A stretch of DNA of 40,163 nt. It comes from a virus (Duplodnaviria > Heunggongvirae > Uroviricota > Caudoviricetes). The translations under genes were made by a program, and so were the position numbers. Shown piece after piece: positions 11,897-32,062 of the stretch. The notes beneath the pieces are model-generated. The model saw nothing but the letters and a program-made list of their open reading frames with translations, had not been told where the DNA came from and searched no databases. Within the stretch, counting starts at the first letter, position 1; each line of letters opens with the position of its first letter. Where the stretch lies: positions 1 to 40,163 of IMG/VR virus record IMGVR_UViG_2671180637_000025, one strand, 5' to 3'.

Positions 11897-12238
11897 TTGA
11901 TGGCTAAATCAGCAGCAGAGCGCAAAGCCGCTCAGAGAGCCAGACAAGCTGCATCTGGTGTGCGTAAGCTGGAGATTGTGCTTGATGCTCAGGAAATTGA
12001 AATGCTGGAGCGTAACTGTGCCACGCGTCGCCCCGGGCGTGCGCCTTACGAATTTGGTGAGTATATAGCGTTACTGATCCGCCAGGATGATGCACGCGTG
12101 CGCGGGCGTATAAAATCGATCAGCAGAAAACGTTGCGGTAAGTGCGGCGAGAGAGTTCCTGTGAATTCATGCCCGTGTAATGGTGACTCGCAATGCTGGG
12201 TGACTAAAGGCTGGCATGAAACGAAATTAATAGTGTGA
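11897..12238 (+). CDS. Putative zinc-finger regulator; positional candidate for a late-gene regulator
   Basis: 113 aa; C-terminal CGKCGERVPVNSCPCNGDSQC; last gene before the terminase block; stop codon lies inside the 14-bp palindrome. Confidence 0.4.
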   Translation: MMAKSAAERKAAQRARQAASGVRKLEIVLDAQEIEMLERNCATRRPGRAPYEFGEYIALLIRQDDARVRGRIKSISRKRCGKCGERVPVNSCPCNGDSQCWVTKGWHETKLIV

Positions 12239-12247
12239 CATGTCACG
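12234..12247. repeat. Copy 1 of 14-bp motif TGTGACATGTCACG
   Basis: Exact 14-mer, one of three in the window. Confidence 0.8.
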
Positions 12248-12255
12248 AAGGTGTT

Positions 12256-12468
12256 ATGCCAAAAATACGCTACGACCTTGAAGATATGAGAGATAACTCA
12301 GCAAATTTTCCGAAAGAGGTTAAATTTCTCATGCATAAGTATGGTTGCGCCAGGAGGGATATAGTTATCGACAGTCAGCACCCTTGCGGCGAGGATGTAA
12401 TTTTCATTCGCGGTAAATGGGAAGGGTATCTTGACGAGAGTTTTTACGATGAATTTGATGGACTTTGA
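12256..12468 (+). CDS. Hypothetical protein (70 aa)
   Basis: Start placed at ATG 12256 behind GAAGGTG; the track start at 12235 lies inside the palindrome. Confidence 0.4.
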   Translation: MPKIRYDLEDMRDNSANFPKEVKFLMHKYGCARRDIVIDSQHPCGEDVIFIRGKWEGYLDESFYDEFDGL

Positions 12469-12510
12469 ATACTGCCGCCAACTATGGCGGCTTTATTTTG
12501 CATGGTACTA

Positions 12511-12543
12511 TTACCACAACGGTAACTATTACCACGGTGGTTA
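12511..12543. promoter_or_regulatory. Operator-like sites upstream of terminase: TTACCACAACGGTAA (12511..12525) and degenerate TTACCACGGTGGTTA (12529..12543)
   Basis: Part of direct repeat GGTA(A)CTATTACCAC x2; the Thr-rich track translation here looks non-coding. Confidence 0.5.
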
Positions 12544-13139
12544 TGATGCCTGCTGAACCTAAAACCTATAAACGCAAATCAACGCAATTTAAGCCGCTCA
12601 CAGCAATGCAGGAGGCTTATTGCCAGTCATACATCAAAACGCCTGAAAACCAGACTCAGGCAGCGATTAACGCAGGATTCTCCCCAAATACAGCGGCAGT
12701 TAAAGCCAGTGTAATGATGCGCGATGAACGCATTCAAAAACGGATTGCCGAGTTGATGGAGGAGCGCAACAAACGAATGCGCGTCAGTGCTGATTACGTT
12801 CTCATGCGCCTGGTGGAGATCGACCAGATGGACGTGATTGATATCCTCAACGACGATGGAAGCCTTAAGCCAATTCGCGAGTGGCCGAAAATCTGGCGCA
12901 CTACGCTTAGCGGCTTTGATCTGTCATCGACCATCATGAACATGAATGAGGATTCGATAGAGACAATCCTCAAAAAAATTAAATGGCCTGACAAGGTGAA
13001 GAACCTTGAGCTGATTGGTAAGCACGTCGATGTCAATGCATTCAAAGAACGCCTGGATGTTAATGTAAATGTGACAATTGCTGATCGCATAGCAGCAGCC
13101 AGGAAGAGACTGAAAGAACGTCAGGATGGCAATCAGTGA
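12543..13139 (+). CDS. Terminase small subunit
   Basis: AAINAGFSPNTAAVKASVMMRDERIQKRIAEL signature; start placed at ATG 12543 (track ORF begins at TTG 12465); ATGA overlap with large subunit. Confidence 0.7.
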   Translation: MMPAEPKTYKRKSTQFKPLTAMQEAYCQSYIKTPENQTQAAINAGFSPNTAAVKASVMMRDERIQKRIAELMEERNKRMRVSADYVLMRLVEIDQMDVIDILNDDGSLKPIREWPKIWRTTLSGFDLSSTIMNMNEDSIETILKKIKWPDKVKNLELIGKHVDVNAFKERLDVNVNVTIADRIAAARKRLKERQDGNQ

Positions 13140-14611
13140 CAGATACAGCGTTATCTCCTGAAGAGCAGTTAATCGAGGATATTGCAGGGTTCACTCACGA
13201 TCCGCTTGGTTATGCCCTCTATGCTTTCCCGTGGGGGGAAGAGGGTACTGAACTGGCACATGCCACCGGCCCACGTCAGTGGCAGGCCGATGCGTTCCGA
13301 GAGATACGTGATCACCTGCAGAATCCAGAGACGCGATATCAGCCGCTTATGCTGGCACGTGCTTCTGGTCACGGTATTGGTAAATCCGCATTCATCTCAA
13401 TGCTGATCAACTGGGGCATGTCCACTTGCGAGGATTGTAAGGTCGTGGTGACCGCCAACACCGACAACCAGCTACGAACGAAGACCTGGCCTGAAATTAT
13501 CAAGTGGTCGAACCTTGCTATCACGAAAGACTGGTTCACCTGCACCGCTACCGCGATGTACAGCAATGATCCTGGACACGACAAGCGGTGGCGAGCTGAC
13601 GCAATCCCCTGGTCTGAGCACAACACTGAGGCATTCGCAGGACTACACAACGAGCGCAAACGCATCATCGTGGTATTCGATGAAGCGTCGAACATTGCGG
13701 ATCTGGTGTGGGAAGTTGCTGAGGGTGCGCTTACGGACGAAGACACTGAGATTATCTGGGTGGCGTTCGGAAACCCGACGCGTAATACTGGGCGATTCCG
13801 TGAATGTTTCCGCAAGTATAAACACCGCTGGAAAACTGCGCAGATTGACAGCCGGACGGTGGAAGGCACCAACAAACAGCAGTTGCAGAAATGGGTTGAT
13901 GACTACGGGGAAGACAGTGACTTCGTTAAAATCCGTGTGCGCGGCATATTCCCTGATGCATCTGAATTGCAGTTTATCCCTACCGGACTTACTGACGAGG
14001 CAATGAAACGGGTGATAACCGCTGCGCAGGTGGCACATGCTCCGGTGATAATCGGCGTTGACCCGGCATACTCCGGTGTTGATGACGCTGTGATATACCT
14101 GCGGCAGGGGCTGCATAGTAAGGTGCTGTGGACCGGCAACAAGACCACTGACGATCTGATTATGGCGAAGCGTATCGCTGACTTTGAAGACCAGTACCAG
14201 GCTGACGCAGTGTTCATCGACTTCGGTTACGGAACTGGTCTGAAGTCAATCGGTGACGGCTGGGGTCGTACATGGCAACTTGTTCCGTTCGGTGGCGCGT
14301 CTACTGACCCGCAGATGCTCAACAAGCGTGGGGAGATGTTCAACTCATGCAAGACATGGCTGAGGCTGGGCGGCATGCTTGATGACCAGGAAACAGCGGA
14401 CGACCTGTCGGCAGCAGAGTACAAAGTTCGAGTGGACGGTAAAATCGTTATCGAACCGAAGGAAGATATCAAAGAGCGACTTGGGCGTTCTCCTGGTAAA
14501 GGCGATGCGCTACTGCTGACGTTTGCGTTCCCTGTGTCGAAGCGTCTGCGAATTCCCGGTCAGCAGAACCAGCAAGGCAAGGCCATCACAGATTACGATC
14601 CCTATGCTTAA
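13136..14611 (+). CDS. Terminase large subunit
   Basis: 491 aa; Walker A-like ARASGHGIGKSAF; ATPase and nuclease-sized domains. Confidence 0.85.
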   Translation: MTDTALSPEEQLIEDIAGFTHDPLGYALYAFPWGEEGTELAHATGPRQWQADAFREIRDHLQNPETRYQPLMLARASGHGIGKSAFISMLINWGMSTCEDCKVVVTANTDNQLRTKTWPEIIKWSNLAITKDWFTCTATAMYSNDPGHDKRWRADAIPWSEHNTEAFAGLHNERKRIIVVFDEASNIADLVWEVAEGALTDEDTEIIWVAFGNPTRNTGRFRECFRKYKHRWKTAQIDSRTVEGTNKQQLQKWVDDYGEDSDFVKIRVRGIFPDASELQFIPTGLTDEAMKRVITAAQVAHAPVIIGVDPAYSGVDDAVIYLRQGLHSKVLWTGNKTTDDLIMAKRIADFEDQYQADAVFIDFGYGTGLKSIGDGWGRTWQLVPFGGASTDPQMLNKRGEMFNSCKTWLRLGGMLDDQETADDLSAAEYKVRVDGKIVIEPKEDIKERLGRSPGKGDALLLTFAFPVSKRLRIPGQQNQQGKAITDYDPYA

Positions 14612-14653
14612 TCCGCTGGTGGGGATAATGTCGTTGATATCCTCTGGTGAGGA

Positions 14654-14681
14654 TAAAACAAAGCCAGCTCATAGGCTGGCT
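14654..14681 (-). terminator. Intrinsic terminator for the minus-strand tRNA/small-ORF transcript
   Basis: Stem AGCCAGC / GCTGGCT with 6-nt loop; T-run on the minus strand. Confidence 0.5.
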
Positions 14682-14684
14682 GAT

Positions 14685-14698
14685 TGTGACATGTCACG
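14685..14698. repeat. Copy 2 of 14-bp motif TGTGACATGTCACG
   Basis: Exact 14-mer, same orientation as copy 1. Confidence 0.8.
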
Positions 14699-14701
14699 GC
14701 G

Positions 14702-14896
14702 CTAGAAAGTAATTTTATCGAATGCGGCGTTGATCGCTTTGGCATCCTGCACGGCACCACGCTCATCGAGTAAAGATCTTTTACTAAGCACTTCAGCTAG
14801 GCATTGAAGCTTAGTGTGGTAGAGGTTCTCGCGGCGAATCTCTTCAGCAGGAGATTGTTTCTGAATGCCTTCAACTGTCTTCGTCATAATATTCAC
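14702..14896 (-). CDS. Hypothetical small protein (64 aa), opposite strand to the late genes
   Basis: ORF only; same strand as the adjacent tRNA. Confidence 0.35.
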   Translation of the reverse strand: MNIMTKTVEGIQKQSPAEEIRRENLYHTKLQCLAEVLSKRSLLDERGAVQDAKAINAAFDKITF

Positions 14897-15078
14897 CTTA
14901 AAAAAATGCCCGGACGAACTGGAAGCAATGAGTTATGCCTTCCGTGGCTGTACTGGTTTACAGCATGAAGTCATCGCAATGGCGTCCTGCTGTAAAAAGG
15001 GCGGTGATAGTCCTTCAAGGGAAACCATCACCGCCAAGCACCTGGAACTTCTGGCATCACGGTCCTTAGGCGTGATTC

Positions 15079-15155
15079 TGGCGTGGCATGCAGGATTCGA
15101 ACCTGCGACCAACCGCTTAGAAGGCGGTTGCTCTGTCCAACTGAGCTAATGCCAC
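15079..15155 (-). tRNA. tRNA-Arg (anticodon UCU), argU-like, phage-internal
   Basis: 77 nt GTGGCATTAGCTCAGTTGGACAGAGCAACCGCCTTCTAAGCGGTTGGTCGCAGGTTCGAATCCTGCATGCCACGCCA; perfect 7-bp acceptor stem, D stem GCTC/GAGC, anticodon stem ACCGC/GCGGT with loop CTTCTAA, T stem GCAGG/CCTGC with loop TTCGAAT, encoded CCA. Confidence 0.85.
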
Positions 15156-15477
15156 AACGCTGAGAGCACTTAGCCTGTTAAGGCGCCACACTTTGTCGCG
15201 GCTCCATAAATGCTCTCATCGTTGTACCCTCGTCTCTTCCGAGGCGTCACACCGAATCGCCGGGGTGGTGAATCCCCGTGCGCGGAATAAAACCGCTCGA
15301 CTTGCACATTCCGGCTACCTGGTTCGTTTGCCCGAGCAAGGGAGGGTGCCCCTTAAACGTACCCAGACCGCTATCGGCGCATGTGCCATACGCCGTACTA
15401 CTCAAAATAAAAGCTCACTCCACCTGTTCAATTTAACGACAAGCCAGTCAGGTTAATAACCGGAATGAATCCTTTAG

Positions 15478-15492
15478 TTACCTGAAGGGTAA
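15478..15492. promoter_or_regulatory. Operator-like site TTACCTGAAGGGTAA upstream of the virion operon
   Basis: Perfect TTACC-N5-GGTAA about 90 bp upstream of ATG 15583. Confidence 0.5.
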
Positions 15493-15582
15493 TAATTCGT
15501 GCGTTAAATGTCAACCATCTACGATAAATAAAACATATGTGGTTAAATTGGTAATAATTTAATTGCGTACGGAGTCATTGAT

Positions 15583-15789
15583 ATGTGCATGGGTAGCTCA
15601 CCATCAGTGCCTGCAACACCAGAAGTTCAGGCAGCACCACAGGAGCAGGATGCCGCCGTTGTTGATGCCCGCGACGAAGAAACTCGTCGCCGTCGCGCTG
15701 CTGCTGGTCGTAGTTCTACGCTGCTTACCGGTTCTCAGGGCGACACATCAACCGCTAATACCAGCGGTAAAACGCTGCTTGGTCAGTAA
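15583..15789 (+). CDS. Small virion protein, T7 gp6.7-like
   Basis: 68 aa; N-terminal MC... and basic, Ser/Thr-rich composition recalled for T7 gp6.7; sits just before the portal as in T7. Confidence 0.45.
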   Translation: MCMGSSPSVPATPEVQAAPQEQDAAVVDARDEETRRRRAAAGRSSTLLTGSQGDTSTANTSGKTLLGQ

Positions 15790-15803
15790 CCGGAGTCATT
15801 GAA

Positions 15804-17483
15804 ATGGCGGAAACAACTAAAGAGCGATTGAACAAACAGTTCGCACAACTTGAAAGCGAGCGTCAGTCGTTCGAGCCGCACTGGCGCGAGTTGAGTGATT
15901 ACATCAATCCGCGTGGTTCCCGCTTTCTGACTTCTGAGGTCAACCGTAACGATCGACGCAATACACGCATTATTGATTCGACCGGGACTATGGCGGCGCG
16001 CACTCTCGCCAGCGGAATGATGTCTGGCATCACAAGCCCAGCCCGTCCGTGGTTTCGCCTGGCTACGCCAGATCCTGAAATGATGGATTATGGCCCTGTT
16101 AAGTTGTGGCTTGAGGCGGTGCAGAACCGCATGAACGATATGTTCAATAAGTCGAATCTCTATCAGTCGCTGCCGCAGTTATACGGAAGCCTCGGCACAT
16201 ACAGCACTGGTGCAATGGCAGTGCTGGAGGATGACGAGGACATCATTCGCACAATGCCATTCCCGATAGGCAGTTACTACCTGGCTAACTCACCTCGTGG
16301 CAGTGTGGACACCTGTTTTCGCAAGTTCTCTATGACTGTTCGTCAGCTTGTTCAGGAGTTCGGGCTAAATAACGTCAGCGAATCCGTAAAAAGCATGTGG
16401 GAAAGCGGCACCTACGAGAAGTGGATTGAAGTGATGCATTCGGTTTACCCGAACATTGACCGCGACACATCGAAGCTGGATAGCAAGAACAAGCCATTCA
16501 AATCGGTTTATTACGAGGTTGGTGGCGACAACGACAAGTTGTTACGTGAATCCGGATTCGATGAGTTTCCAATTATGGCTCCGCGCTGGGAAGTTAACGG
16601 CGAAGATGTTTATGGATCATCATGCCCGGGCATGCTGGCGCTTGGACCTGTTAAGGCATTGCAGCTTCTTCAGAAGCGCAAGTCGCAGTTGATTGATAAA
16701 GCCACCAATCCGCCGATGGTTGCTCCGACTTCCCTCAAGAATCAGCGCGCCTCCCTTCTTCCTGGCGACATCACGTATATCGATCAGATTACTGGTCAGG
16801 ATGGTTTCAGGCCTGCTTATCTGGTTAACCCCAGTACAGCAGATCTGGTGGCAGACATTCAGGACACTCGTCAAATCATTAACAGTGCCTACTTTGTCGA
16901 TCTGTTCATGATGTTGCAGAACATCAATACCCGTTCGATGCCTGTTGAAGCGGTGATCGAAATGAAAGAAGAAAAACTTCTGATGTTGGGGCCGGTTCTG
17001 GAGCGTCTGAACGACGAATGTCTTAATCCTCTCATTGACCGCGCTTTCTCGATGATGGTGCGTAAAAACATGCTGCCGCCACCGCCTGACGCGATGGAAG
17101 GCATGCCCCTGAAGGTCGAATACATTTCCGTCATGGCTCAGGCGCAGAAGTCTATCGGCCTATCCAGTCTGGCGTCCACGGTTAACTTCATTGGTCAACT
17201 TGCGCAAGCGAAACCAGAAGCTCTCGACAAACTCAACGTTGATCAGGCGATCGATGCATTCGCTGATATGTCCGGAGTGTCTCCAACCGTCATTGTTCCG
17301 CAGGAACAGGTTGAGCAGGCTCGCCAGCAACGGGCACAGCAGCAACAGCAGCAACAAATGATGGCGATGGGGATGGCGGCGGCACAGGGTGCCAAGACGC
17401 TAAGCGAAGCTAAAACTTCGGATCCGAGTGTTTTGTCAGCTATGGCGAATGCAGTTAGTGGTCAGGGTGGGCAATCACAATGA
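15804..17483 (+). CDS. Portal (head-tail connector) protein, T7 gp8-like
   Basis: 559 aa; Gln/Ala/Met-rich C-terminal tail (QQRAQQQQQQQMMAMGMAAAQGA) as recalled for T7 gp8; gene order. Confidence 0.8.
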   Translation: MAETTKERLNKQFAQLESERQSFEPHWRELSDYINPRGSRFLTSEVNRNDRRNTRIIDSTGTMAARTLASGMMSGITSPARPWFRLATPDPEMMDYGPVKLWLEAVQNRMNDMFNKSNLYQSLPQLYGSLGTYSTGAMAVLEDDEDIIRTMPFPIGSYYLANSPRGSVDTCFRKFSMTVRQLVQEFGLNNVSESVKSMWESGTYEKWIEVMHSVYPNIDRDTSKLDSKNKPFKSVYYEVGGDNDKLLRESGFDEFPIMAPRWEVNGEDVYGSSCPGMLALGPVKALQLLQKRKSQLIDKATNPPMVAPTSLKNQRASLLPGDITYIDQITGQDGFRPAYLVNPSTADLVADIQDTRQIINSAYFVDLFMMLQNINTRSMPVEAVIEMKEEKLLMLGPVLERLNDECLNPLIDRAFSMMVRKNMLPPPPDAMEGMPLKVEYISVMAQAQKSIGLSSLASTVNFIGQLAQAKPEALDKLNVDQAIDAFADMSGVSPTVIVPQEQVEQARQQRAQQQQQQQMMAMGMAAAQGAKTLSEAKTSDPSVLSAMANAVSGQGGQSQ

Positions 17484-17776
17484 CAGATTACGAAGACGAT
17501 CAACTGAAAGAAGAAAACGCCCGTAAGCAACGTGACATGGCGCAGCGTGAAATTGATGACATTCGCTTTGTCATGAGCAGTGAACAGGGGCGTCGCGTTG
17601 TCTGGTCTGTGCTGGAGAAAGGCCGGGTGTTTTCCGCTATCTCTCCGATGGACGCTATGGCAATGGCATTTAATGAGGGGCAACGCAATCTGGCGCTGGA
17701 ACTGTTTCAGCGCGTTATGGCGCATTGCCCTGAACAGTATTTGAAGATGGCCAAAGAGGCCAGTGAACAGGAGTGA
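17480..17776 (+). CDS. Hypothetical protein (98 aa) between portal and scaffold
   Basis: ATGA overlap with portal stop. Confidence 0.45.
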   Translation: MTDYEDDQLKEENARKQRDMAQREIDDIRFVMSSEQGRRVVWSVLEKGRVFSAISPMDAMAMAFNEGQRNLALELFQRVMAHCPEQYLKMAKEASEQE

Positions 17777-17778
17777 TC

Positions 17779-18474
17779 ATGAATTTATTTGAGCGTTTGC
17801 TGTATCGCCGTCTTTGCAATGAGCAACCAGTCGATGGTGGAGCAGCTCCGGCTGCGTCAGAACCGTCAGCGCCTGCAGGTGATAACCCTGCTCCAGTTGG
17901 TGATCCATCACAACAGGAAGGTGATAAGCCACAACCTGTTGCTGATGGCGATAAACCTGCTGATGACAAAAAGCCTGAAAACGATAAGCAGGATGAAAAA
18001 AAGGACGGCAATAAACCAGAGGGTGCGCCTGAGAAGTACGAGTTTCAGGCTGCCGAAGGCGTAGAGCTGGATACAGAAGCGTTGAAGGAATTCGAGCCGG
18101 TGGCGCGAGAACTTAACCTGACCAACGAGCAAGCGCAAAAGCTGGTTGATGCTTATCCGAAGATTCTGGCAGGTGTTCAGCAGCGCCAGGCAGAAGCCTG
18201 GCAGAAAACAACCGAGCAGTGGGCTGCGGATGTAAAAGCTGACAAAGAAATCGGTGGCGACAAGTTGATTTCTAACCTTAGCGCCGCACAGCGTGCGCTT
18301 GACCAGTTTGGGACACCTGAACTCAAAGAATATCTGAACACCACCGGGCTGGGTAATCACCCTGATCTGGTCAAAACGTTCGTGAAAATCGGAAAGGCGA
18401 TGTCTGAAGATGGCATGGTCACCGGTGGTAATGAAGGCCAGCGTAGTGCGGCCGAAGTGCTCTATGGCAAATAA
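17779..18474 (+). CDS. Scaffolding protein (acidic, Pro/Asp/Lys-rich N-terminus)
   Basis: ATG 17779 behind GGAG; position between portal and capsid; low-complexity acidic region. Confidence 0.6.
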   Translation: MNLFERLLYRRLCNEQPVDGGAAPAASEPSAPAGDNPAPVGDPSQQEGDKPQPVADGDKPADDKKPENDKQDEKKDGNKPEGAPEKYEFQAAEGVELDTEALKEFEPVARELNLTNEQAQKLVDAYPKILAGVQQRQAEAWQKTTEQWAADVKADKEIGGDKLISNLSAAQRALDQFGTPELKEYLNTTGLGNHPDLVKTFVKIGKAMSEDGMVTGGNEGQRSAAEVLYGK

Positions 18475-18488
18475 GAGAGGAAATAACA

Positions 18489-19475
18489 ATGGCTGTTAAA
18501 GGCTTAACTGCGCTAACGCTGGCTGACTGGGGTAAGCGCGTCGATCCAAACGGGAAAGTCGATAAGATTATCGAGCTTCTCGGTCAAACTAACCCGATCC
18601 TTCAGGATATGCCTTTTGTCGAAGGGAACCTTCCTACCGGACACCGAACCACCATTCGTTCTGGTTTACCTTCAGCCACCTGGCGTTTGCTGAACTATGG
18701 CGTACAGCCAAGCAAATCAACCACAGTGCAGGTCACCGACTCCGTTGGCATGCTGGAAACCTATGCTGAAGTCGATAAGTCACTGGCTGATCTGAACGGT
18801 AATACCGCCGAATTCCGCCTGTCTGAAGACCGCGCATTTATTGAAGCGATGAATCAGCAGATGGCGCAGACGCTGTTTTATGGTGACTCCAGCGTTAACC
18901 CTCAGCAGTTTATGGGACTGTCCTCCCGCTATTCCAGCCTGTCTGCGGGTAATGCTCAGAACATCATTGATGCTGGTGGCACGGGTACAGATAACACCTC
19001 AATCTGGTTAGTGGTGTGGGGCGAAAACACCGTGCATGGCATCTTCCCGAAAGGGCAGAAGGCTGGCATCCAGATGGAAGATAAAGGCCAGGTGACACTG
19101 GAAGATGCTAATGGCGGCAAGTACGAAGGCTACCGTACCCATTACAAATGGGACAACGGACTTGCTCTGCGTGATTGGCGTTATGTTGTTCGCATTGCAA
19201 ACATCGATGTCAGCAATCTTTCAGAACCTTCCTCTGCCGCAAATATTGCGAAGTTGATGGTTAAAGCACTGCATCGCATTCCAAACCGTGGCATGGGCCG
19301 CCCGGTGTTCTACATGAACCGCACTGTAGGCCAGGCTCTTGATCTGCAGTCTCTGGAGAAAACATCTCTGGCTATCAGCGTAAAAGAGACTGAAGGCGAG
19401 TGGTGGACTTCATTCCGTGGTGTACCAATCCGTGAAACTGATGCGCTTCTGGAAACAGAAGCCCGCGTGGTGTAA
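18489..19475 (+). CDS. Major capsid protein
   Basis: 328 aa; position after scaffold; strong RBS; followed by a stem-loop. Confidence 0.7.
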   Translation: MAVKGLTALTLADWGKRVDPNGKVDKIIELLGQTNPILQDMPFVEGNLPTGHRTTIRSGLPSATWRLLNYGVQPSKSTTVQVTDSVGMLETYAEVDKSLADLNGNTAEFRLSEDRAFIEAMNQQMAQTLFYGDSSVNPQQFMGLSSRYSSLSAGNAQNIIDAGGTGTDNTSIWLVVWGENTVHGIFPKGQKAGIQMEDKGQVTLEDANGGKYEGYRTHYKWDNGLALRDWRYVVRIANIDVSNLSEPSSAANIAKLMVKALHRIPNRGMGRPVFYMNRTVGQALDLQSLEKTSLAISVKETEGEWWTSFRGVPIRETDALLETEARVV

Positions 19476-19526
19476 CGCCTGTTATTAACCTGTGGGTCGT
19501 AACAGACCCACTAATGGAGAAAGAAG

Positions 19527-19964
19527 ATGATCACCGACAAACTGTTGATGTTCTCCGAAGCTCAGGCGGTTACGAATACCGCGGCTTCTACTGACGTAAT
19601 CGATCTCGGTCCAATTGACGGAAAACGTCGTGATATCGGCGTGGGTTACCCGCTTGAGTTTTGGGCGCTGGTTAACACAGCCGCCGCAGCAAGCGGTGAT
19701 GCAACTGTAAACATCCAGTTGCAGACGAGTGAGGATAACAGCTCATGGACCACTATTTATGATAGTGGTGCACTGGCAAAGACCGCCCTGACAGCAGGTA
19801 AACGAGTTGTTTCAGCAAAGGTGCCTGCCGGTGTTCAGCGATATCTGCGTGTTAACTACTCCGTCGCAACTGGCCCACTAACGGCTGGCGAATTCACTGC
19901 GGGTATCAGTCTTGATGTTGATGCCAATACGCCGTATCCGATCCGCTCAAAAGTAACTGGTTAA
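19527..19964 (+). CDS. Hypothetical virion protein (145 aa)
   Basis: ORF with RBS inside the structural operon. Confidence 0.5.
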   Translation: MITDKLLMFSEAQAVTNTAASTDVIDLGPIDGKRRDIGVGYPLEFWALVNTAAAASGDATVNIQLQTSEDNSSWTTIYDSGALAKTALTAGKRVVSAKVPAGVQRYLRVNYSVATGPLTAGEFTAGISLDVDANTPYPIRSKVTG

Positions 19965-19974
19965 GGTGATATCG

Positions 19975-20348: not shown

Positions 20349-20360
20349 GCAGGAGTGTAT

Positions 20361-24224: not shown

Positions 24225-24769
24225 TGTGCGATCCGGTTATTGCTGGTGGCGCAATGCTCGCCATGAGTGGCATTCAGGCATACACCCAGTACCAACAGGG
24301 AAAATATGCCTCGAAGGTTGCAGAAGCGAACGCAGATATAGCCACTGCTCAGGCAAATGATGCAATAAACAGAGGTAACGCTGAAGCTGAGCAACGGCGC
24401 AGAGAAACCCGACAGCGGCTTGGTACACAGGCGGCGACAATGGGGGCGACCGGCGCTGATTTATCTACCGGTAACGCGCTGGATATATTTGGCGACACTG
24501 CCCAGTTTGGCGCCCTTGATTCGCTGACGACGGTGAATAACGCGCAACGCGAGGCTTACGGTTATCAGGTTCAGGCTGCCAATTATAAAGCAGAAGCCAG
24601 TTCAGCCCGTAAACAGGGGAATGTGGGAGCAGCAACAACATTGCTCACTGCGCCTCTGAAGGCATACGGTGCGTACCAGATGTTTGGTGGGACGTGGAGT
24701 CCGTTTACTCAAAGCACTCCTGCGCCAATCGGGGCAGCAGCAGGAACCAGATTACCCGGAGGATTATAA
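24224..24769 (+). CDS. Internal virion protein, T7 gp14-like
   Basis: 181 aa; N-terminus MCDPVIAGGAMLAMSGIQAY resembles recalled T7 gp14 MCWAAAIPIAISGAQAI. Confidence 0.55.
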   Translation: MCDPVIAGGAMLAMSGIQAYTQYQQGKYASKVAEANADIATAQANDAINRGNAEAEQRRRETRQRLGTQAATMGATGADLSTGNALDIFGDTAQFGALDSLTTVNNAQREAYGYQVQAANYKAEASSARKQGNVGAATTLLTAPLKAYGAYQMFGGTWSPFTQSTPAPIGAAAGTRLPGGL

Positions 24770-27282
24770 TGCCAGTCGTACCAACAGTATCCGGACGTCA
24801 GGTTGAGAGTCGTGGAGTTCAGTCAGCAGGCTTGCAGACGTTTTCTCAGCCAGGTATTGGTGATGCTTTTGTTCGGGCAGGGACAGAGGCAATTGATGTT
24901 TTGGGGCAGGCAAAACAGCGTGCCAATATCGCTCTGGCTCAGGAGGCATCTCTTAACCTCAGTCAGATAAGCAGCGATCTGCTGAATAATCCTGAAACAG
25001 GTTTGCTTAACCTGAAAGGGAAAAATGCTATTGGAAAAGGTCAGGAGTATACGCAGCAGTTTGATGCTCAGATCGAACAACTGGCTATGTCGCTGCCGGA
25101 TGAACAGGCTCGTAATGCTTTCATGCAGCAGGCACAGCAGCAGCGCATTCAGTTCACTACGCAGGCCGGGAGGTACGAGATAGGGCAAATAAATGCCTAC
25201 GAAGAAGGCCAGTTTCAGGCTACGCTGCTGAACAATGGTAAAAATGCCGCAGCATTGTATGGCGACAACGCCGCATACGTATTGGCTAATAAGCAAACTT
25301 TCCAGCAAATTGAGGATTACGGCATTGCACATGGCTGGATTGACGAGCAAATCCAGGCCAAGAAAATCGAGTTTAAAGAAGCAACAGCAAAAGCAACTGC
25401 TCAAAATGCTATTGGAGCAAACTATCTTCAGGTAAGACAGCAAAACGGCGAGTTAAGCGATACTGCTGCTGGATCTCGCCGTGCTGTAGCAGATAGTGGC
25501 TCTTCCGATCGTACCCGCGGTATACGCAACAATAACCCCGGCAATCTTGAATACAGCAAAACTAATCCGTGGGTTGGGCAGACTGGTGATGATGGGCGCT
25601 TTGCCAAATTCGAAACCCCTGAACACGGTATTCGTGCATTAGGGCGGAACCTGATGTCGTATCAGCGCCAGGGTATTGATACCGTTAGTGAGATAATTAA
25701 TCGCTGGGCACCGCCTACTGATAAAAATGACACTATGTCGTATATCAAAGCAGTGTGCGAACAACTTGGCGTTTCTGCTGATGAGCCTCTCGATGCATCA
25801 AATCCTGATACCCTGAAGGCGCTTTGTGCAGCCATTATCCATCATGAAAACGGTAGCCAGCCATACAGTGATCAGCAGTTAACTGCAGGTGTTAGTGCTG
25901 CGCTTGGGCTTTCTCAGCTACCGACAAAAAATAAACGTTATACCGGTGTAGCCTGGTTCGATGCTTTAAGTGAATCAGATCAGGCCAGCGTGTTGCGACA
26001 GACTGATGCACTAGCCAGACAACAGCAGGCTGAATATAAAACGATGCTCGACAGCCGGGTTCGCGATGCGACGGCTGCGTATATGCGTGGCGTTGAATTT
26101 CCTAACCCACCTGGTGAGGATGATTTTATTGCAGCTTATGGAGTCAGAGAAGGAAACCTGCGATATACCGAGTTTAAGAATACGCAGATCGCCGGACAGT
26201 ATATAGGCTCTTTCCGCAACATGCCGACAAGCAACATTACAGCATATGTTGAGCAATTACGCCCGGATACTGGTGAGACAGGGGAGGGGTATGCGGCACG
26301 CGCAGCTCTTTATGACAACGTTGTTTCGGCTGCAAATCAGGTGATAAAGCAGCGGCAGTCGGATCCTGTGCAGTTCTCTCTTGCCTCCGGACAGGCAAAG
26401 CCTATCGACATGAGCAATAAGGATAACTTTGGACAGAGCGTTGCCTTGCGTGCCGCTCAGGTCAGTGACCTTGCTAAGTCATATGGCACTCCACTGACGT
26501 TCTTTTCCAAAGACGAGGCCAATCAGATCGGTGTTTTCTTTCGTGATGCTCCAGTTTCCCAACAGGCAGCATATCTCGATACCATCAGGCAGAGCACTGG
26601 TGGTGGGCAGGTGTATATGTCAGCACTACAGCAGATCAGTGCCAACGCTCCATCTGCTGCCGTTGCCGGGATACTGATGGACAAGCCTGGTGGTATTTTG
26701 GCAGAAAAAAACTGGTTTAATCCGGATGTTTCCGTGTCTCCTGAAACCGCTGCGCAGACAATTCTTGCTGGCGCGGCGGCTCGTAAAGGTACTGATGATG
26801 CGAAAGGTATTACGATGCCTAAAGATGCTGATCTTCGCCTTGAGTTTTCTGACATGGTGAAGGATGCATTTGCTGGTGATGCTCAGGGGGCATCAATGGC
26901 ATACGAGATCGCAAAGGACTATTACGCTGGTGTGATGGCGAAAAAAGGCGTGGTATCAGGCGAAATTGACAATGATGTCTGGAAACAGGCTGTTAACGTA
27001 GCTACAGGTGGCGTGCATGACTATAACGGAATGGGGAATGTCCTTTTGCCGTGGGGAATGTCTGCAGAGCAATTCGATAAGCAGGTTAATCAGGCTTGGA
27101 ATGAACAAGTTGTCGGCACCGGGATAAAAACACCGCCTGGTCAGTATGGTTTGCAAAGTTATGGTGATAGTCAGTACCTGGTGAAACTTGGTACTGGTTA
27201 TCTGCTGAAAGATGATGGTTATCCTGTTGTTCTTGATCTGACACAGAAGCGTCAGAGATTCTCCGGAGATATTCCGCAATGA
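24769..27282 (+). CDS. Internal virion / ejection protein, gp15-like
   Basis: ATG 24769 overlapping upstream TAA, RBS GGAGGA; 837 aa; conserved block RGIRNNNPGNLEY...IINRWAPPTDKNDT that I cannot assign. Confidence 0.55.
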   Translation: MPVVPTVSGRQVESRGVQSAGLQTFSQPGIGDAFVRAGTEAIDVLGQAKQRANIALAQEASLNLSQISSDLLNNPETGLLNLKGKNAIGKGQEYTQQFDAQIEQLAMSLPDEQARNAFMQQAQQQRIQFTTQAGRYEIGQINAYEEGQFQATLLNNGKNAAALYGDNAAYVLANKQTFQQIEDYGIAHGWIDEQIQAKKIEFKEATAKATAQNAIGANYLQVRQQNGELSDTAAGSRRAVADSGSSDRTRGIRNNNPGNLEYSKTNPWVGQTGDDGRFAKFETPEHGIRALGRNLMSYQRQGIDTVSEIINRWAPPTDKNDTMSYIKAVCEQLGVSADEPLDASNPDTLKALCAAIIHHENGSQPYSDQQLTAGVSAALGLSQLPTKNKRYTGVAWFDALSESDQASVLRQTDALARQQQAEYKTMLDSRVRDATAAYMRGVEFPNPPGEDDFIAAYGVREGNLRYTEFKNTQIAGQYIGSFRNMPTSNITAYVEQLRPDTGETGEGYAARAALYDNVVSAANQVIKQRQSDPVQFSLASGQAKPIDMSNKDNFGQSVALRAAQVSDLAKSYGTPLTFFSKDEANQIGVFFRDAPVSQQAAYLDTIRQSTGGGQVYMSALQQISANAPSAAVAGILMDKPGGILAEKNWFNPDVSVSPETAAQTILAGAAARKGTDDAKGITMPKDADLRLEFSDMVKDAFAGDAQGASMAYEIAKDYYAGVMAKKGVVSGEIDNDVWKQAVNVATGGVHDYNGMGNVLLPWGMSAEQFDKQVNQAWNEQVVGTGIKTPPGQYGLQSYGDSQYLVKLGTGYLLKDDGYPVVLDLTQKRQRFSGDIPQ

Positions 27283-29081
27283 GTTACTTTGGCCTTAATC
27301 CAGTAAACCAGAATCAGCAGCTTGACGAAGCAGCATCAAATCCAGCTGGCTTTAACAGCGATGTTGGTTTTTTCGACAATGCTGCAGGAGCGGCATTGTC
27401 TGGTTTGTACTCCGGGCTGGTGGCAAAGCCAGATCAGTTGCTATGGGCAGGGATGGATAAAATCGTATCCCCGATTGCTCAGTTTGTTAACGAAAACACC
27501 TCGCTCAATGACACTTCAGTTTCATACATTGCTGAGCAGAGAAAACTAGCAGAGCAGCAGGTTAAGCGGCTGACGCCTGATGCCGCGACAACCGGAACCG
27601 CCGGGCAGGTCCTTTATGGGTTGTTCGATATGGGCGGGCAGGCTGTTGTCGGTACAACGCTCGGTGGTCCGGTCGGAGGTGCTGCGGCGGTAACTTCGCT
27701 ACAGGGTTTTTCTGAGTTTGAACGGCTGACAGCACAGGGTGTTGATTTCAGGACGGCGCAGGAAGCGGGATTAGTGCTGGGTATTACTGCTGGTGCCGGA
27801 ACACTGATCCCTATGAGCCTCGGGTTACGTGCTGGTGGTGCGCTGGCGGAAGGTGTGGCGGCTCAGCTTGCACGGACGGGTGAGAGTTCAGTGCGACGCG
27901 CCGCAGCAACAGCAGTACGTGCAACGCCAGATATTGCCTATGCCGCAGGTACAAATATTGCGTTCGGTATGGCACAGCGTGGGCTTACTGCAAAAACGCT
28001 TCGTGATGGTGGCTATAGCGAAATGGCTAACCAGTATGATGTGTTGGATCGACAGGCAATTGCTATTGATGCTGTTCTTGGGGTGGCGTTTGGTGGTGTC
28101 GGCAGATTTATTAACTCTCGCGGCGAGTCTACAAGCGCCCCAAATTTTTCACCAGTTGATATCGATGCTGCACTGGCGGCGAATGCCGCTCATCATGCTG
28201 AAATTGATATTGCTCCCGGCGTGCCGATCAACGTGCTTTCGCGCAATTCTCACATTCAGGCTCTGCGAAAAGCTATGTCTGATGTTAGCCAGGGGAGACC
28301 TGTAGACGTTGCCAGCATTGTTGAGCCTGCATCTTTCAGTGAAATTCCTGGGCGCAAGAATCTGCTGTCTCAGGCAGTTAATGAGGCTCTGTCATCTGTA
28401 GATGATGGAGTAACGGCGCGTGCTATCGAAAATCGGTTGCTTGAAGAACAGGCTGCGCAGCTTTTGCCGCGTGGCGATAGACAGGTTTACCAGTCTGAAA
28501 TCGCTAATAGCCAACGAATTATCGACAATCTCACTGAACAGCGCGCACAAATTCTTGCAGAAGAGTCAACTGGTAGCGGTAAAGCTTTGTCTCGTGCTCG
28601 ATCAGATAAACAGGTCAGACTTCGCGATATTGACCAACGAATCCGGCAGGCACAAGAACGCCTGGAATTTTCCCGTAACGCGTTGGCACCGCATGAGCCT
28701 GGCGGTCAGTTTTTTGAAGCTCGAGCAGAACTGGCACGGAGACAGCAGGCTGAAAGTGAACTTAATGCTCAGGCTGTTTCATTCTATAAAACAGCAGAGG
28801 TCAGGACGCCAGACGAAGTAGCTCCTTTTGAGCCCGGTAAGATATTGCAACAGGCAGAACAAAAGATGATGGCAGATCCGGCAGGAGATATTGATCTGCG
28901 CATAGCTGAAGACTCGCTGCTTGAATCACCTGACATGATAATCACCGTGCTGGATGATGATGGTAATCCACAATCGCGCAGTGCGCGTGAAGTACTGGAT
29001 GAAGCGAACATGGAAAGTGAGCAGGCAATACAGGATTCCAGCCTGTTTGATGTCGCTGTGGCGTGTTTCTTGAGAGGTTAA
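27279..29081 (+). CDS. Internal virion / ejection protein (gp16-like, part 1)
   Basis: 600 aa; Gly/Ala-rich N-terminal region; ATGA overlap with upstream gene. Confidence 0.5.
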   Translation: MSYFGLNPVNQNQQLDEAASNPAGFNSDVGFFDNAAGAALSGLYSGLVAKPDQLLWAGMDKIVSPIAQFVNENTSLNDTSVSYIAEQRKLAEQQVKRLTPDAATTGTAGQVLYGLFDMGGQAVVGTTLGGPVGGAAAVTSLQGFSEFERLTAQGVDFRTAQEAGLVLGITAGAGTLIPMSLGLRAGGALAEGVAAQLARTGESSVRRAAATAVRATPDIAYAAGTNIAFGMAQRGLTAKTLRDGGYSEMANQYDVLDRQAIAIDAVLGVAFGGVGRFINSRGESTSAPNFSPVDIDAALAANAAHHAEIDIAPGVPINVLSRNSHIQALRKAMSDVSQGRPVDVASIVEPASFSEIPGRKNLLSQAVNEALSSVDDGVTARAIENRLLEEQAAQLLPRGDRQVYQSEIANSQRIIDNLTEQRAQILAEESTGSGKALSRARSDKQVRLRDIDQRIRQAQERLEFSRNALAPHEPGGQFFEARAELARRQQAESELNAQAVSFYKTAEVRTPDEVAPFEPGKILQQAEQKMMADPAGDIDLRIAEDSLLESPDMIITVLDDDGNPQSRSAREVLDEANMESEQAIQDSSLFDVAVACFLRG

Positions 29082-29086
29082 ATTAA

Positions 29087-31534
29087 ATGAGACAGGAATG
29101 TATACAAGCGGTTCAGCAGGCGGCGCAGCGCACGTTAACGGCGCGAGAAATACAGAACATTGAAGACCGCATTTATCGAAATATGCGCTCCATTGCTCGT
29201 GATGACCCGATGTCGTGGAGACAACTTTCCGAATCAGAGCGGCTATATCGAGCAGCACAATTGGCATCTGAAGAATTACAGCGAGAAGCGGCATTAAAGA
29301 AACGTCGTGTGGCCCTCACTATAGCTGCACGTCAGAGATTGGATAAATTTATCAATAGCTATCAAGGGGCTGATGGGAAACTTGGCGCTCTTAACCGTAC
29401 TATTGCTTTTAATGCAGACGGTAAATCGAATTTCCTCTCTGTTGAATCCAGAACAAAAGCCACTCGTGATTATGCATTGAGTCAATTGCAGGAGGCATTC
29501 GAAGCAGTTGATCCCCGCTTTTTTGGTCTGTTTGAAGATGAAGCGGGCGTACGTGACCTGGTATATGAAATGCGGGGGCAAAATACTGGCAATGCTAAAG
29601 CAAGAAAAGGTGCTAAGGCATGGAGAGAAGTTACAGAGCTGCTGCGCCGCCGGTTTAATGATGCTGGTGGGGACATTGGCTATCTCGAAAACTGGGGGAT
29701 CCCTCAACATCATTCTATGGAAAAGGTTGGGGCGGTATCAAAAGATAAATGGGTTAGCGATGTTATAGGTAAGCTGGATCGCAAATATTATACCCGAGCC
29801 GATGGACAACTGATGAACGATGCCGAGTTGTCTGCATTTCTTGGAGAGGCTTATAACACGATCGCTACTGGTGGGCTGAATAAGCTTACTGATACCGGAA
29901 TGCGAATTTCCGGCGCACGTGCTAACCGTGGTAATGCATCACGACAGATACATTTCAAAGATGCAGATTCCTATCTGCAATATCAGCAACTTTATGGCGA
30001 TCGCTCTCTATGGGAAATCATGGTCGGTCACCTGGAAGGTATCAGTAAAGATATTGCACTGGTGGAAACATATGGCCCAAACCCCGATCATGTTTTCCGC
30101 TCTCTTCTTGATCAGGTGAAGGCAGAAACGGCAACAGCTAACCCGAGTAAAACCGGTAAAGTCGAGCGGCTGGCGAACAACACAGAGAATCTGTACAACT
30201 TTATTTCCGGAAAGACACAGCCTGTAGCGAATCCGCACATCGCGCGATGGTCTGACAATATCCGCAACTGGCTGGTTGCCAGCAGACTCGGATCCGCGTT
30301 GCTGTCATCGTTCTCTGATCTTGGAACCATGTATCTGTCTGCGAAGGTTACCAACCTTCCAATGAACCAGTTATTCCGCAACCAGCTTGAAGCTATGGAC
30401 CCAACGAACCGTACAGAACTTGCGCGGGCGCGCCGCGCTGGTCTGGCGATGGAATCTCTACTTGGCAGCGTTAACCGCTGGGCGATGGATAATATGGGGC
30501 CGTCAGTGTCTCGTTGGGCGGCAACGGCGGTAATGCGTGCCAGTGGGCTTACAGCATGGTCAGATGCGCACAAGCGCGCCTATGGCGTAACCATGATGGG
30601 AAGCCTGGGAGAAGTAGTGTCACTGACACCAGACCTTCGTAGCCTCGATGACTCTGATTTTCGTATCCTGAAAAGCAAAGGGATTACTGACACAGACTGG
30701 AGCGTATGGAAGCTGGCGCAACAGGAGGACTGGGGGAACGGTAATAATACGATGCTGACACCGGAAAGCATTATGCGTATCCCTGATTCAGCAGTTAAAC
30801 ATCTTGGTGAGCCTGAGCGCGTGAAATTTGAGGCAATGCGTAAATTGCTCGGTGCCGTAACTGAAGAAGTTGATATGGCTGTTATTACACCGGGAGCTCG
30901 TGAGCAACTGATAACCGGTTCTGGTATTCAGCGTGGAACATGGAAAGGTGAATTAACGAGAAGTGTTTTCCTGTTTAAATCGTTCCCTATCTCGGTTGTT
31001 ATGCGTCACTGGTCACGCGCTATGGGTATGCCGTCTGCTGGTGGGCGTGCGGCATATATTGCGACGTTTATTGCCAGTACGACCATTCTTGGCGCTTTGT
31101 CGCAGCAACTTAACGACCTTGCGTCTGGTCGTAATCCTCGAGAGATGACAGGAGAAGATGCCGCAAAATTCTGGCTTGGTGCTCTACTGAAAGGTGGTGG
31201 TCTTGGCCTTTACGGTGACTTTTTATTGTCAGATCACACTAGGTACGGAAGCGGCGCGCTGGCGTCGATGCTTGGCCCGGTAGCTGGTCTGGTTGATGAC
31301 GTAGTGAAGATTGCTCAGGGCATACCGTTAAATGCTGTGGAAGGGAAGAGTGAGCAGACTGGTGGTGATCTGGTGAAGCTGGGGAAAGGTTTGATGCCAG
31401 GTGCGAATCTCTGGTACTTGAAGGCGGCTCTCGATCACATGATCTTTAACCAGATGCAGGAGTATTTTTCACCAGGCTATTTGCGTAAAATGGAGCAACG
31501 TTCGAAGAAAGAGTTTAATCAGACATACTGGTAG
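29087..31534 (+). CDS. Internal virion / ejection protein (gp16-like, part 2)
   Basis: 815 aa; Gly-rich C-terminal segment; last large gene before the accessory island. Confidence 0.5.
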   Translation: MRQECIQAVQQAAQRTLTAREIQNIEDRIYRNMRSIARDDPMSWRQLSESERLYRAAQLASEELQREAALKKRRVALTIAARQRLDKFINSYQGADGKLGALNRTIAFNADGKSNFLSVESRTKATRDYALSQLQEAFEAVDPRFFGLFEDEAGVRDLVYEMRGQNTGNAKARKGAKAWREVTELLRRRFNDAGGDIGYLENWGIPQHHSMEKVGAVSKDKWVSDVIGKLDRKYYTRADGQLMNDAELSAFLGEAYNTIATGGLNKLTDTGMRISGARANRGNASRQIHFKDADSYLQYQQLYGDRSLWEIMVGHLEGISKDIALVETYGPNPDHVFRSLLDQVKAETATANPSKTGKVERLANNTENLYNFISGKTQPVANPHIARWSDNIRNWLVASRLGSALLSSFSDLGTMYLSAKVTNLPMNQLFRNQLEAMDPTNRTELARARRAGLAMESLLGSVNRWAMDNMGPSVSRWAATAVMRASGLTAWSDAHKRAYGVTMMGSLGEVVSLTPDLRSLDDSDFRILKSKGITDTDWSVWKLAQQEDWGNGNNTMLTPESIMRIPDSAVKHLGEPERVKFEAMRKLLGAVTEEVDMAVITPGAREQLITGSGIQRGTWKGELTRSVFLFKSFPISVVMRHWSRAMGMPSAGGRAAYIATFIASTTILGALSQQLNDLASGRNPREMTGEDAAKFWLGALLKGGGLGLYGDFLLSDHTRYGSGALASMLGPVAGLVDDVVKIAQGIPLNAVEGKSEQTGGDLVKLGKGLMPGANLWYLKAALDHMIFNQMQEYFSPGYLRKMEQRSKKEFNQTYW

Positions 31535-31570
31535 CGACCTCAGGATGTCACTCCGCAATAAGGAAGTGTT

Positions 31571-31744
31571 GTGTTTTTAATTATTTTGAGTGTGATAATT
31601 TCTGGTGGGTTGTTATTTATTGACCGCTACAAATATTTTCTTAACCCTCAGACTCAAGCTATTTGCTGGTTCATCTTTGTTGTGCAGGGAATAGTTCTTG
31701 TTGCAAGCCTTATTGAGGGGAGGCCTCTGATTTTTACTGGGTAA
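31571..31744 (+). CDS. Small membrane protein (57 aa, two predicted TM helices)
   Basis: Not in ORF track; GTG 31571 behind AAGGAAG; translation VFLIILSVIISGGLLFIDRYKYFLNPQTQAICWFIFVVQGIVLVASLIEGRPLIFTG; AT-rich. Confidence 0.35.
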   Translation: MFLIILSVIISGGLLFIDRYKYFLNPQTQAICWFIFVVQGIVLVASLIEGRPLIFTG

Positions 31745-31756
31745 ATAGGTGACTAC

Positions 31757-32047
31757 ATGCAAGCTATAGGATTCATTGTTTATATCGTCGTTGGTCTTTT
31801 TCAGTTGGCAGCAATTATGGCTGGGCTTGAATCATGGTGGGGATTGCACTGGATAATTGCAGCCCCCATTGCTTTCATCGTGAGCTATATTCCATTTGTT
31901 GGAGCGATTGTTGGTATGGTTGGTGCTGTGGATGTATGGCTGTGGGAGTGGTGGCAGGCTGGCCTTCTCTTCTTTGGTGGGATCATCTTTGCTATTGTCT
32001 GCGGTGGAATGTCATCATTTTTCGAACGGCTATCATTCAGAAAATGA
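31757..32047 (+). CDS. Small Trp-rich membrane protein (96 aa, about three TM helices)
   Basis: RBS AGGTGA; strongly hydrophobic; followed by an intrinsic terminator. Confidence 0.55.
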   Translation: MQAIGFIVYIVVGLFQLAAIMAGLESWWGLHWIIAAPIAFIVSYIPFVGAIVGMVGAVDVWLWEWWQAGLLFFGGIIFAIVCGGMSSFFERLSFRK

Positions 32048-32048
32048 A

Positions 32049-32062
32049 CGTGACATGTCACA
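32049..32062. repeat. Copy 3 of 14-bp motif TGTGACATGTCACG (reverse orientation)
   Basis: Plus strand reads CGTGACATGTCACA, the exact reverse complement of copies 1 and 2. Confidence 0.8.

Follow-up and report, generated by a model that had tools for sequence, protein, structure and literature searches.

A dispersed GTGAC-N2-GTCAC palindrome in an epsilon15-like prophage and its association with the p55 gene family of temperate phages

Several described proteins that read short palindromes invite comparison with the element reported here. SlmA binds a 12-mer of the GTGAGTACTCAC type, which has G at position 5 and C at position 8, and MatP, which organizes the Ter macrodomain of E. coli, contains a ribbon-helix-helix element. 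The matS sequence of the MatP/matS system is a 13-bp palindrome of the form GTGAC-RNY-GTCAC, with a 3-bp spacer (GTGACRNYGTCAC) (PMC6907758). The subject of this report is a 14-bp sequence, TGTGACATGTCACG, that is present in three exact copies in a 40,163-nucleotide (nt) stretch of viral DNA (IMG/VR record IMGVR_UViG_2671180637_000025; the whole of this stretch is called the window below), together with a small gene of the p55 family whose stop codon lies inside one of the copies. Sequence comparison identifies the window as an epsilon15/phiV10-like prophage of the genus Uetakevirus. We describe how sites of the form GTGAC-N2-GTCAC accompany homologs of this gene in unrelated phages, and consider the 14-mer as a candidate operator of the protein that the gene encodes.

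The three copies of the 14-mer and their flanks

The 14-mer occurs exactly three times in the window, at 12234..12247 (plus strand), 14685..14698 (plus strand) and 32049..32062 (minus strand); these are referred to here as sites (or copies) 1, 2 and 3. When up to two mismatches are allowed there are seven matches (the sequence is nearly palindromic and both strands were scored), against a mean of 0.44 in 100 dinucleotide-preserving shuffles, none of which reached seven. Its 12-bp core, GTGACATGTCAC, is a perfect palindrome. An earlier note on this DNA had described three exact copies, a perfectly palindromic core and the places of the copies (at the stop of a "zinc-finger" open reading frame (ORF), at a hairpin after the large terminase gene terL, and at a stop codon/terminator junction). 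All of these descriptions are borne out by the present analysis, and its remark that the spacing does not fit the CRP protein is correct: the sequence here reads TGTGA-N4-TCAC(G/A), whereas a CRP site reads TGTGA-N6-TCACA. A CRP site is ruled out by this spacing, the N2 between the GTGAC arms being invariant across the 77 sites described below; a matS site is ruled out by the 2-bp spacer at all three window sites; and a SlmA site is ruled out by C5 and G8 of the core, of which the outer 4 + 4 bases alone agree with the SlmA consensus.

Site 1 holds the TGA stop codon (12236..12238) of the p55-family gene, which occupies 11900..12238 on the plus strand (the mechanically called ORF begins at 11897) and encodes a 112-amino-acid homolog of phiV10 p55, epsilon15 gp49 and N15 gp46. 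Site 2 is 73 nt past the terL stop codon (14611) and lies between the hairpin that follows terL and the stop of a variable cassette gene on the minus strand (14702..14896, 64 amino acids, PHROG 4846), the stop codon being 3 nt from the site. The hairpin occupies 14662..14681, at a distance of 3 nt from site 2. Read on the minus strand it has a T tract and makes a good intrinsic terminator, which ends the cassette gene; on the plus strand site 2 takes the place of the T tract. Site 3 begins 2 nt past the stop codon of another variable gene (31757..32047, plus strand, 96 amino acids, PHROG 3075) and abuts a plus-strand intrinsic terminator at 32062..32079, the first base of which is the last base of the site. 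Sites 2 and 3 are thus 0-3 nt from terminator hairpins, and each of these hairpins is followed in one direction by a T tract, as an intrinsic terminator is, and in the other direction by the site.

The region is ~96-97% identical to the Escherichia Uetakevirus phages phiV10, TL-2011b, ZX5 and PAS61, and ~81% identical to Salmonella phage epsilon15. The earlier note had proposed searching related phages for the 14-mer and comparing the mosaic breakpoints among them. The motif is present at the same three places in epsilon15, ZX5 and Tyrion; phiV10 has exact copies 2 and 3 and a copy 1 with one mismatch (TGTGACATGTTACG), and TL-2011b has copies 1 and 3. Site 1 overlaps the stop codon likewise in epsilon15, TL-2011b, ZX5 and Tyrion, and in phiV10 with the one mismatch. 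Alignments anchored on the motif show, at all three copies, one conserved and one unrelated flank: in close relatives the flank on the T side is identical at 45-60 of 60 positions, and the flank on the CG side at 13-22 of 60, which is the random level. In the more distant relatives epsilon15 and Tyrion both flanks of copies 2 and 3 match at 15-27 of 60 positions, and the motif itself nevertheless matches at 14 of 14 (13 of 14 at epsilon15 copy 3). Because the motif is kept while its flanks diverge to random-level identity, these alignments argue that it is under strong selection. Among 80 IMG/VR relatives at least seven unrelated sequences are found on the CG side of copy 2, each opening, 2-6 nt beyond the motif, with the reverse-strand stop codon of a cassette gene of its own. 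In being a conserved short sequence that flanks interchangeable cassettes, the motif resembles the "boundary sequences" or PeSL-like linkers of mosaic genomes. The simplest cause of the pattern is that a selected non-coding site stands flush against gene ends in a compact genome, so that surviving mosaic junctions fall at the edge of the site; the junctions would then be a by-product.

Association of the site with the p55 gene family

Is the site quantitatively related to the gene that ends in it? A species-level sample was assembled that consists of 61 prophage loci from different species around p55-family homologs, 1.17 Mb in all. In it GTGAC-N2-GTCAC is found 77 times against 1.1 expected, a 70-fold enrichment, and the same arms with other spacers are at background (5, 1, 1 and 0 occurrences for N0, N1, N3 and N4). 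In about 44 of the 61 loci a site lies within -17 to +11 nt of the homolog's stop codon, and mostly the site's own TGA is that stop. An independent replicate used the N15-type 14-mer, CGTGACTGGTCACG; in 27 of its 28 homolog-bearing loci the gene's 3' end and the site were 0-9 nt apart. Seventy-five unrelated viral loci (0.74 Mb) that served as a control have 8 N2 sites. By the counts of 44/61 and 27/28 loci, gene and site are linked in the manner of a regulator and its short palindromic operator. The earlier note had suggested a regulator-binding site among several possibilities, with the protein of the zinc-finger ORF (the p55-family protein) as positional candidate, and the co-occurrence of GTGAC-N2-GTCAC with homologs in unrelated phages supports that reading.

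An exact search of IMG/VR with the 14-mer found many contigs in which the 3' end of a p55-family homolog, with identity as low as ~50%, coincides with the motif or is a few bases away from it, and in some contigs the center is altered, as in GTGACCTGTCAC. Throughout, the arms of the site are invariant and the central two bases vary (AT, AC/GT, CT, GC and GG), with no compensatory changes. Because invariant arms with a variable center and no compensatory changes are the signature of a site read by a dimeric DNA-binding protein rather than of an RNA helix, the motif would appear to be a protein site.

Homologs and sites occur together in phages of very different kinds, as follows. Pectobacterium myovirus ZF40 encodes a homolog, gp22 (66% identity), in its nin region, 9 kb from the terminase, and carries three copies of TGTGACATGTCACA: 2 nt past the gp22 stop codon, near the 3' end of a cII-like gene, and inside the early-left gene for gp08. 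In the linear-plasmid phage N15 the product of gene 46 is 35% identical and the gene 46 stop lies inside the N15-type 14-mer; there are three GTGACYRGTCAC sites in the N15 genome, and the other two are inside repA (28548..28561) and in the intergenic region 33/32 upstream of the antirepressor genes 30-32 (33236..33249). Both of these other sites are exactly conserved among N15-like phages, while nearby synonymous and spacer positions vary. The Vibrio siphovirus K233 has a homolog with 31% identity, three N2 sites and one matS-like N3 site, and a Yersinia P2-like phage has one site. ZF40, N15 and K233 have no site tied to the terminase. The hosts of the homolog-bearing phages are Enterobacterales, Vibrio and Aeromonas. 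Phage lambda has no N2 site and no annotated homolog, its sequence not having been searched for one. Two side observations concern variant spacers: the matS-like 13-mer of K233, GTGACACCGTCAC at 19491..19503, provides with its TGA the stop codon of gene 0027, and lambda contains GTGAC-N1-GTCAC at 9747 and 19010 (GTGACCGTCAC and GTGACAGTCAC) against ~0.05 expected, which may be chance.

In ZF40-type and in Proteus/Xenorhabdus-type prophages the divergent early promoters have, downstream on either arm, one of the two remaining sites: one of these is in the 3' end of a cII-like gene and the other at the end of an early-left ORF. Among ZF40-like cII prophages the site is found in 75 of 80 cII-like genes, where it encodes R/C-D-M-S-H/Q ~25 codons before the stop, and 5-6 kb from it a small early-left ORF has a second site at its end. 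The lambda "ice" element, which also lies in cII, was considered and has no resemblance to the site. What is invariant among lineages is the presence of a homolog together with two or three sites per genome; the positions of the sites are lineage-specific. Judged from these genomes, the gene and its sites are likely to be a portable module of unrelated temperate phages of Enterobacterales and Vibrionales, typically with two or three sites in places peculiar to each lineage.

Two further settings of the motif were noticed in IMG/VR and other viral contigs. The Q-like antiterminator genes of six IMG/VR loci (L096, L101, L152, L091, L193 and L202) begin ATG CGTGACATGTCACA G.. (MRDMSQVLERW), and the site overlaps their codons 2-5; locus L152 has a p55 homolog as well, at a distance of 11.7 kb. 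The other setting is in high-GC viral contigs, where the 14-mer is found within arrays of GTGAC/GTCAC half-sites inside replication-organizer-like ORFs, one of which starts like DUF1376 (L150, ~1880..1960; L103, ~10760..10870; L121, ~755..800; L131, ~3140..3185; L188, ~10810..10895; L326, ~7750..7800). Directly before each array is an encoded peptide such as AERKRRQRER that resembles the basic arm of the p55 family (below), and the arrays may be an origin-iteron system with a related DNA-reading arm.

The protein encoded by 11900..12238 belongs to PHROG 536 (E=8e-55), and a profile search found no Pfam family for it. GenBank and RefSeq label members of the family "hypothetical" or, without stated evidence, "transcriptional regulator". 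The most conserved segment is a basic N-terminal arm, AERKAAQRARQ, and it is accompanied by a core with a strand-helix-helix pattern (RKLEIVLD / AQEIEMLERNCA / EFGEYIALLIRQD) typical of ribbon-helix-helix proteins, then by a linker helix and a CxxC...C...C tail with four conserved cysteines. NCBIfam gives a weak match to the LexA-regulated protein YbfE (E=0.05). From these sequence patterns the protein looks like a DNA binder with a ribbon-helix-helix-like fold. The family is small and phage-restricted, with 209 clusters at 50% identity among 1.84 billion representatives, and the only domain fusions among the representatives of these 209 clusters are gene-calling artefacts. The genes downstream of the p55-family gene are unrelated from phage to phage (terS, NinB, AlpA-like, PrtN-like and HigB-like), which rules out a conserved downstream partner; the gene and its site therefore behave as a self-contained module.

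What binding at the site might do

The association of gene and site is a direct observation in the loci above, and from it, together with the pattern of the protein, we infer that the p55-family protein is the binder. Our preferred reading is that the 14-mer is the operator of the p55-family protein (11900..12238) and acts as a boundary or roadblock element at operon ends, and we would give this a probability of about 0.6. In this model a dimer would read the invariant arms, YGTGAC and GTCACR, and leave the central two bases free. The three window sites mark the 3' borders of three transcription units, and each has an intrinsic terminator hairpin next to it: the first closes the Rep-controlled "nin-like" operon, the second lies where terL meets the convergent cassette, and the third where the structural operon meets a convergent cassette. 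Bound protein would act as a roadblock that reinforces the adjacent terminators or makes them bidirectional, and so insulates convergent units. In ZF40- and Proteus-type phages the distal pR operon would supply the protein, whose binding would exert feedback on the transcription of delayed-early genes. Selected sites with unselected neighbors would also become fixed points at which mosaic exchange is visible. This effect of binding we infer from the places of the sites: 29% of sites have a terminator-like hairpin within 45 nt against 4.8% of random positions, and sites are depleted in long ORFs (45% against 81%). The boundary or roadblock role proper takes up a minority share of the probability within the binder hypothesis, and we propose it tentatively.

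A number of observations weigh against this reading. Terminators adjoin under a third of the sites, and lineages differ in where the sites stand with respect to promoters. One site of the N15-like phages is fixed 23 nt upstream of a -35 element (TTGACG) and is centered near -66, a constant spacing that suggests promoter-level control and not a roadblock. Copy 2 is lost with a cassette swap in viable relatives of the TL-2011b type, or is mutated (TGTGATATGTCACG), and so is not essential. In the cII group a homolog is within 10 kb in 49 of 75 loci and there is none in the other 26, and 49 of 52 homologs end without a site at the stop codon. The pairing is thus statistical and not absolute, sites can outlive the gene in recent mosaics, and a binder other than the p55-family protein is conceivable. 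As to the protein, phmmer and hmmsearch comparisons with the sequences of the PDB gave no meaningful relative (matches to CpcG have E>0.06), and an AlphaFold2 model of the monomer has helices at 5-18, 30-43 and 52-77 and low confidence (predicted local distance difference test score 59).

A wider form of the proposal, which we regard as speculative, would make the p55-family protein and GTGAC-N2-GTCAC a portable protein-dependent boundary system, either a bidirectional roadblock/insulator or a MatP-like bridge, that marks operon and module borders in Uetakevirus, ZF40, N15, the Vibrio siphoviruses and the Proteus/Xenorhabdus lambdoids. It would feed back on early transcription, on replication (through the N15 repA site) and on antirepressor expression, and as a side effect it would channel where mosaic exchange survives. 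In a sharper variant, equally speculative, the site, being matS less one base, would allow the phage to interact with the MatP-organized Ter region of the host or to compete with it.

The alternative that survives best, though we think it unlikely, keeps the same binder and gives it another job: either architectural bridging or looping of distant sites by a dimer of dimers, in the way of MatP at matS or of lambda CI between OL and OR, or conventional activation or repression of nearby promoters. Looping would suit genomes with two or three sites that are kilobases apart (sites 1 and 2 are separated by 2.45 kb here and the corresponding distance in ZF40 is 2.5 kb), the flanking of the immunity region by two sites in ZF40-type and Proteus-type prophages, and arms identical to those of matS; however, there is no evidence that the p55-family protein forms tetramers, and a MatP-like role has to contend with the lack of sequence similarity between the two proteins (hhalign of the p55-family profile against E. 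coli MatP gave a probability of 0.2%, that is, no homology). Promoter control would suit the constant 23 nt between the N15-like site and the -35 of the predicted promoter upstream of genes 30-32, which we take to be the published promoter of the antirepressor operon, but in Uetakeviruses site 1 and the terS promoter are between ~75 and ~270 nt apart, which rules out a fixed distance there.

It is improbable that a host factor, MatP-like or another chromosomal protein, binds the motif and that the phage gene merely tends to end there. The clade of MatP-bearing bacteria appears to match the host range of these phages, the site is one base shorter than matS, one of the K233 sites has true matS spacing, and sites persist in the 26 cII-group loci that have no nearby homolog, all of which would be in keeping with a host protein. 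On the other hand, the spacer in 1.17 Mb is strictly N2 (77 sites) as opposed to N3 (1 site), lambda lacks an N2 site, and a host site would not be expected to track the stop codon of a phage gene in 44/61 and 27/28 loci.

Improbable to a similar degree is that the motif serves recombination in its own right, with site-specific exchange or homing acting on it to insert or swap neighboring cassettes, the p55-family gene included. The earlier note had raised a recombination junction, and the part of this that stands is the breakpoints: all three copies are exact mosaic breakpoints, the seven or more unrelated cassettes end 2-6 nt from copy 2, and the p55-family gene is flush against the site in differing genomic contexts with unrelated genes downstream. 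The unlikely part is recombination as the function of the site. No recombinase or nuclease motif is present in the p55-family protein, whose single histidine in the C-terminal region is not conserved; sites are also located inside conserved coding sequence (cII-like, repA and Q-like genes) where nothing is swapped; and a junction exactly at a stop codon is expected from selection on compact genomes anyway.

A still smaller chance attaches to the motif acting as RNA, as a small hairpin beside terminators that modulates termination or processing. At copies 2 and 3 the motif is immediately 5' of the terminator hairpin on the transcript of the cassette gene, but its stem would be only 4 bp (-2.7 kcal/mol, no better than shuffles), its arms are invariant without compensatory changes, many sites are away from terminators or in coding DNA, and both strands retain the palindrome irrespective of which way transcription runs.

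The packaging signal that the earlier note had also entertained, a recognition or cleavage site (pac) for terminase, is not borne out and may be dismissed: copies 1 and 2 do bracket terS-terL with copy 1 upstream of terS, but ZF40, N15 (a cos phage) and the cII-group, Proteus- and Xenorhabdus-type prophages carry sites far from the terminase, and in place of a single pac or cos site next to the terminase where virion ends map there are three copies per genome, of which copy 2 is dispensable and lost in relatives. The GenBank records of phiV10 and Tyrion begin and end inside copy 1, in mid-palindrome (...TGTGA/CATGT... in phiV10 and ...TGTGACA/TGTCACG... in Tyrion, the slash marking the break), which would favor packaging; in each of these records, however, the end coincides with the stop codon of the last annotated gene, itself within copy 1, or comes 2 nt later, and the Tyrion genome is reported to be circularly permuted (Tyrion paper), so the breaks are best read as arbitrary openings of a circular map and not as physical ends. 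Such record ends could mislead searches for physical termini.

Surroundings of the sites and comparison with known systems

The gene order of the window is integrase, early-left genes, repressor, replication genes, the "nin-like" operon whose last gene is 11900..12238, then terS, terL, portal and virion genes, the cassette region, tail fiber and lysis genes. The operon that includes the p55-family gene is ended by an intrinsic terminator at 12474..12491 (plus strand), and between site 1 and this terminator is a variable small ORF at 12256..12468 (plus strand, 70 amino acids, PHROG 1541). In phiV10, TL-2011b and ZX5 this ORF is an in-frame 8-codon remnant, ATG CAT GAT GAA TTT GAT GGG TTT TGA, in which the start and last codons are retained. 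A degenerate fourth copy of the 14-mer, TGCGCCATGTCACG, with two mismatches, is inside a coding region at 17531..17544 (minus strand), with one mismatch only in phiV10 and TL-2011b, and is possibly a decaying or weak site.

The 14-mer set is independent of a second dispersed palindrome, the Rep operator TTACC-N5-GGTAA, which is present 13 times in the window (0.76 expected) over 5198..34471 and adjoins the starts of several operons, late ones included. Examples of these 13 matches are at 5198, 5260, 5972, 8279, 8341, 12511, 15478, 33044, 34077 and 34457; they lie in the repressor/cro region (5198..6371), ahead of the nin-like operon (8279 and 8341), just upstream of terS (12511), at 15478 and upstream of the tail-fiber gene (34457). 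Since this operator corresponds to the "repressor" protein_bind features annotated in epsilon15, the matches suggest that the lytic promoters may be directly repressor-controlled. Near terS, the mechanical ORF and the phiV10 annotation start the gene at a TTG upstream of the terminator 12474..12491, and its probable real start is ATG 12543 or 12546, as annotated in epsilon15, TL-2011b and ZX5; an extended -10 element (TGgTACTAT, 12503..12511) precedes this ATG, and the Rep operator overlaps that -10. A tRNA-Arg gene (anticodon TCT) occupies 15079..15155 on the minus strand, within the cassette region that separates site 2 from the portal operon, and after it there is a strong minus-strand terminator (15035..15000).

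A full-text literature search with sequence strings found, among the searchable papers, none describing any variant of the site, and searches of the phiV10/epsilon15, SPC32H and N15 gene 46 literature found no description of the pair. The pair of p55-family protein and site thus appears to be undescribed, although regulators that come with their own operators are well known as a class. Among the viruses of enterobacteria and vibrios it is shared by podo-, myo- and siphoviruses and by a linear-plasmid prophage; its site hardly varies, could readily be mutated, and in most lineages overlaps the stop codon of the gene itself. It opens a way to study how epsilon15-like phages, in which every promoter bears one and the same repressor operator, delimit their operons; to study N15 biology, by way of the site within repA and the one preceding the predicted promoter beside the antirepressor genes; and to ask what makes mosaic junctions gather at certain points. 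Annotators could mark GTGAC-N2-GTCAC as a feature of these genomes.

How does the pair compare with known systems? Like matS, the site is a palindrome with the 5-bp arms GTGAC...GTCAC in several copies dispersed over kilobases, and like MatP the phage protein has a ribbon-helix-helix-like sequence pattern; unlike matS, its spacer is 2 bp and not 3 bp (77 of the 78 N2 or N3 sites in homolog loci are N2), and unlike MatP the protein is phage-encoded, ~112 amino acids long and has a Cys4 tail. With P22 Arc/Mnt, CopG and omega it shares small size, a strand-helix-helix sequence pattern and a palindromic, here putative, operator near the gene; their operators, however, are at promoters and here the sites are at gene 3' ends, one of them in the gene's own stop codon, and the p55-family protein, which is known here from its sequence, has an extra basic arm and a Cys4 domain. 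The KorB/OB system of IncP plasmids is similar in that one small element-encoded protein serves identical palindromes scattered among different operons, but KorB belongs to the ParB family, has 12 sites and takes part in partition, and here there are two or three sites and no ParB features. Roadblock termination by LacI and other tightly bound repressors resembles the action proposed here, in which a tightly bound dimer downstream of a gene would stop RNA polymerase. Lastly, T4-type PeSL cassettes and lambdoid "boundary/linker sequences" are likewise short conserved sequences with a stem-loop that flank variable genes at mosaic junctions; they comprise promoters or terminators that presumably work by way of homology, whereas the element here is a palindrome resembling a protein site that is tied to a gene family and is also found inside conserved genes.

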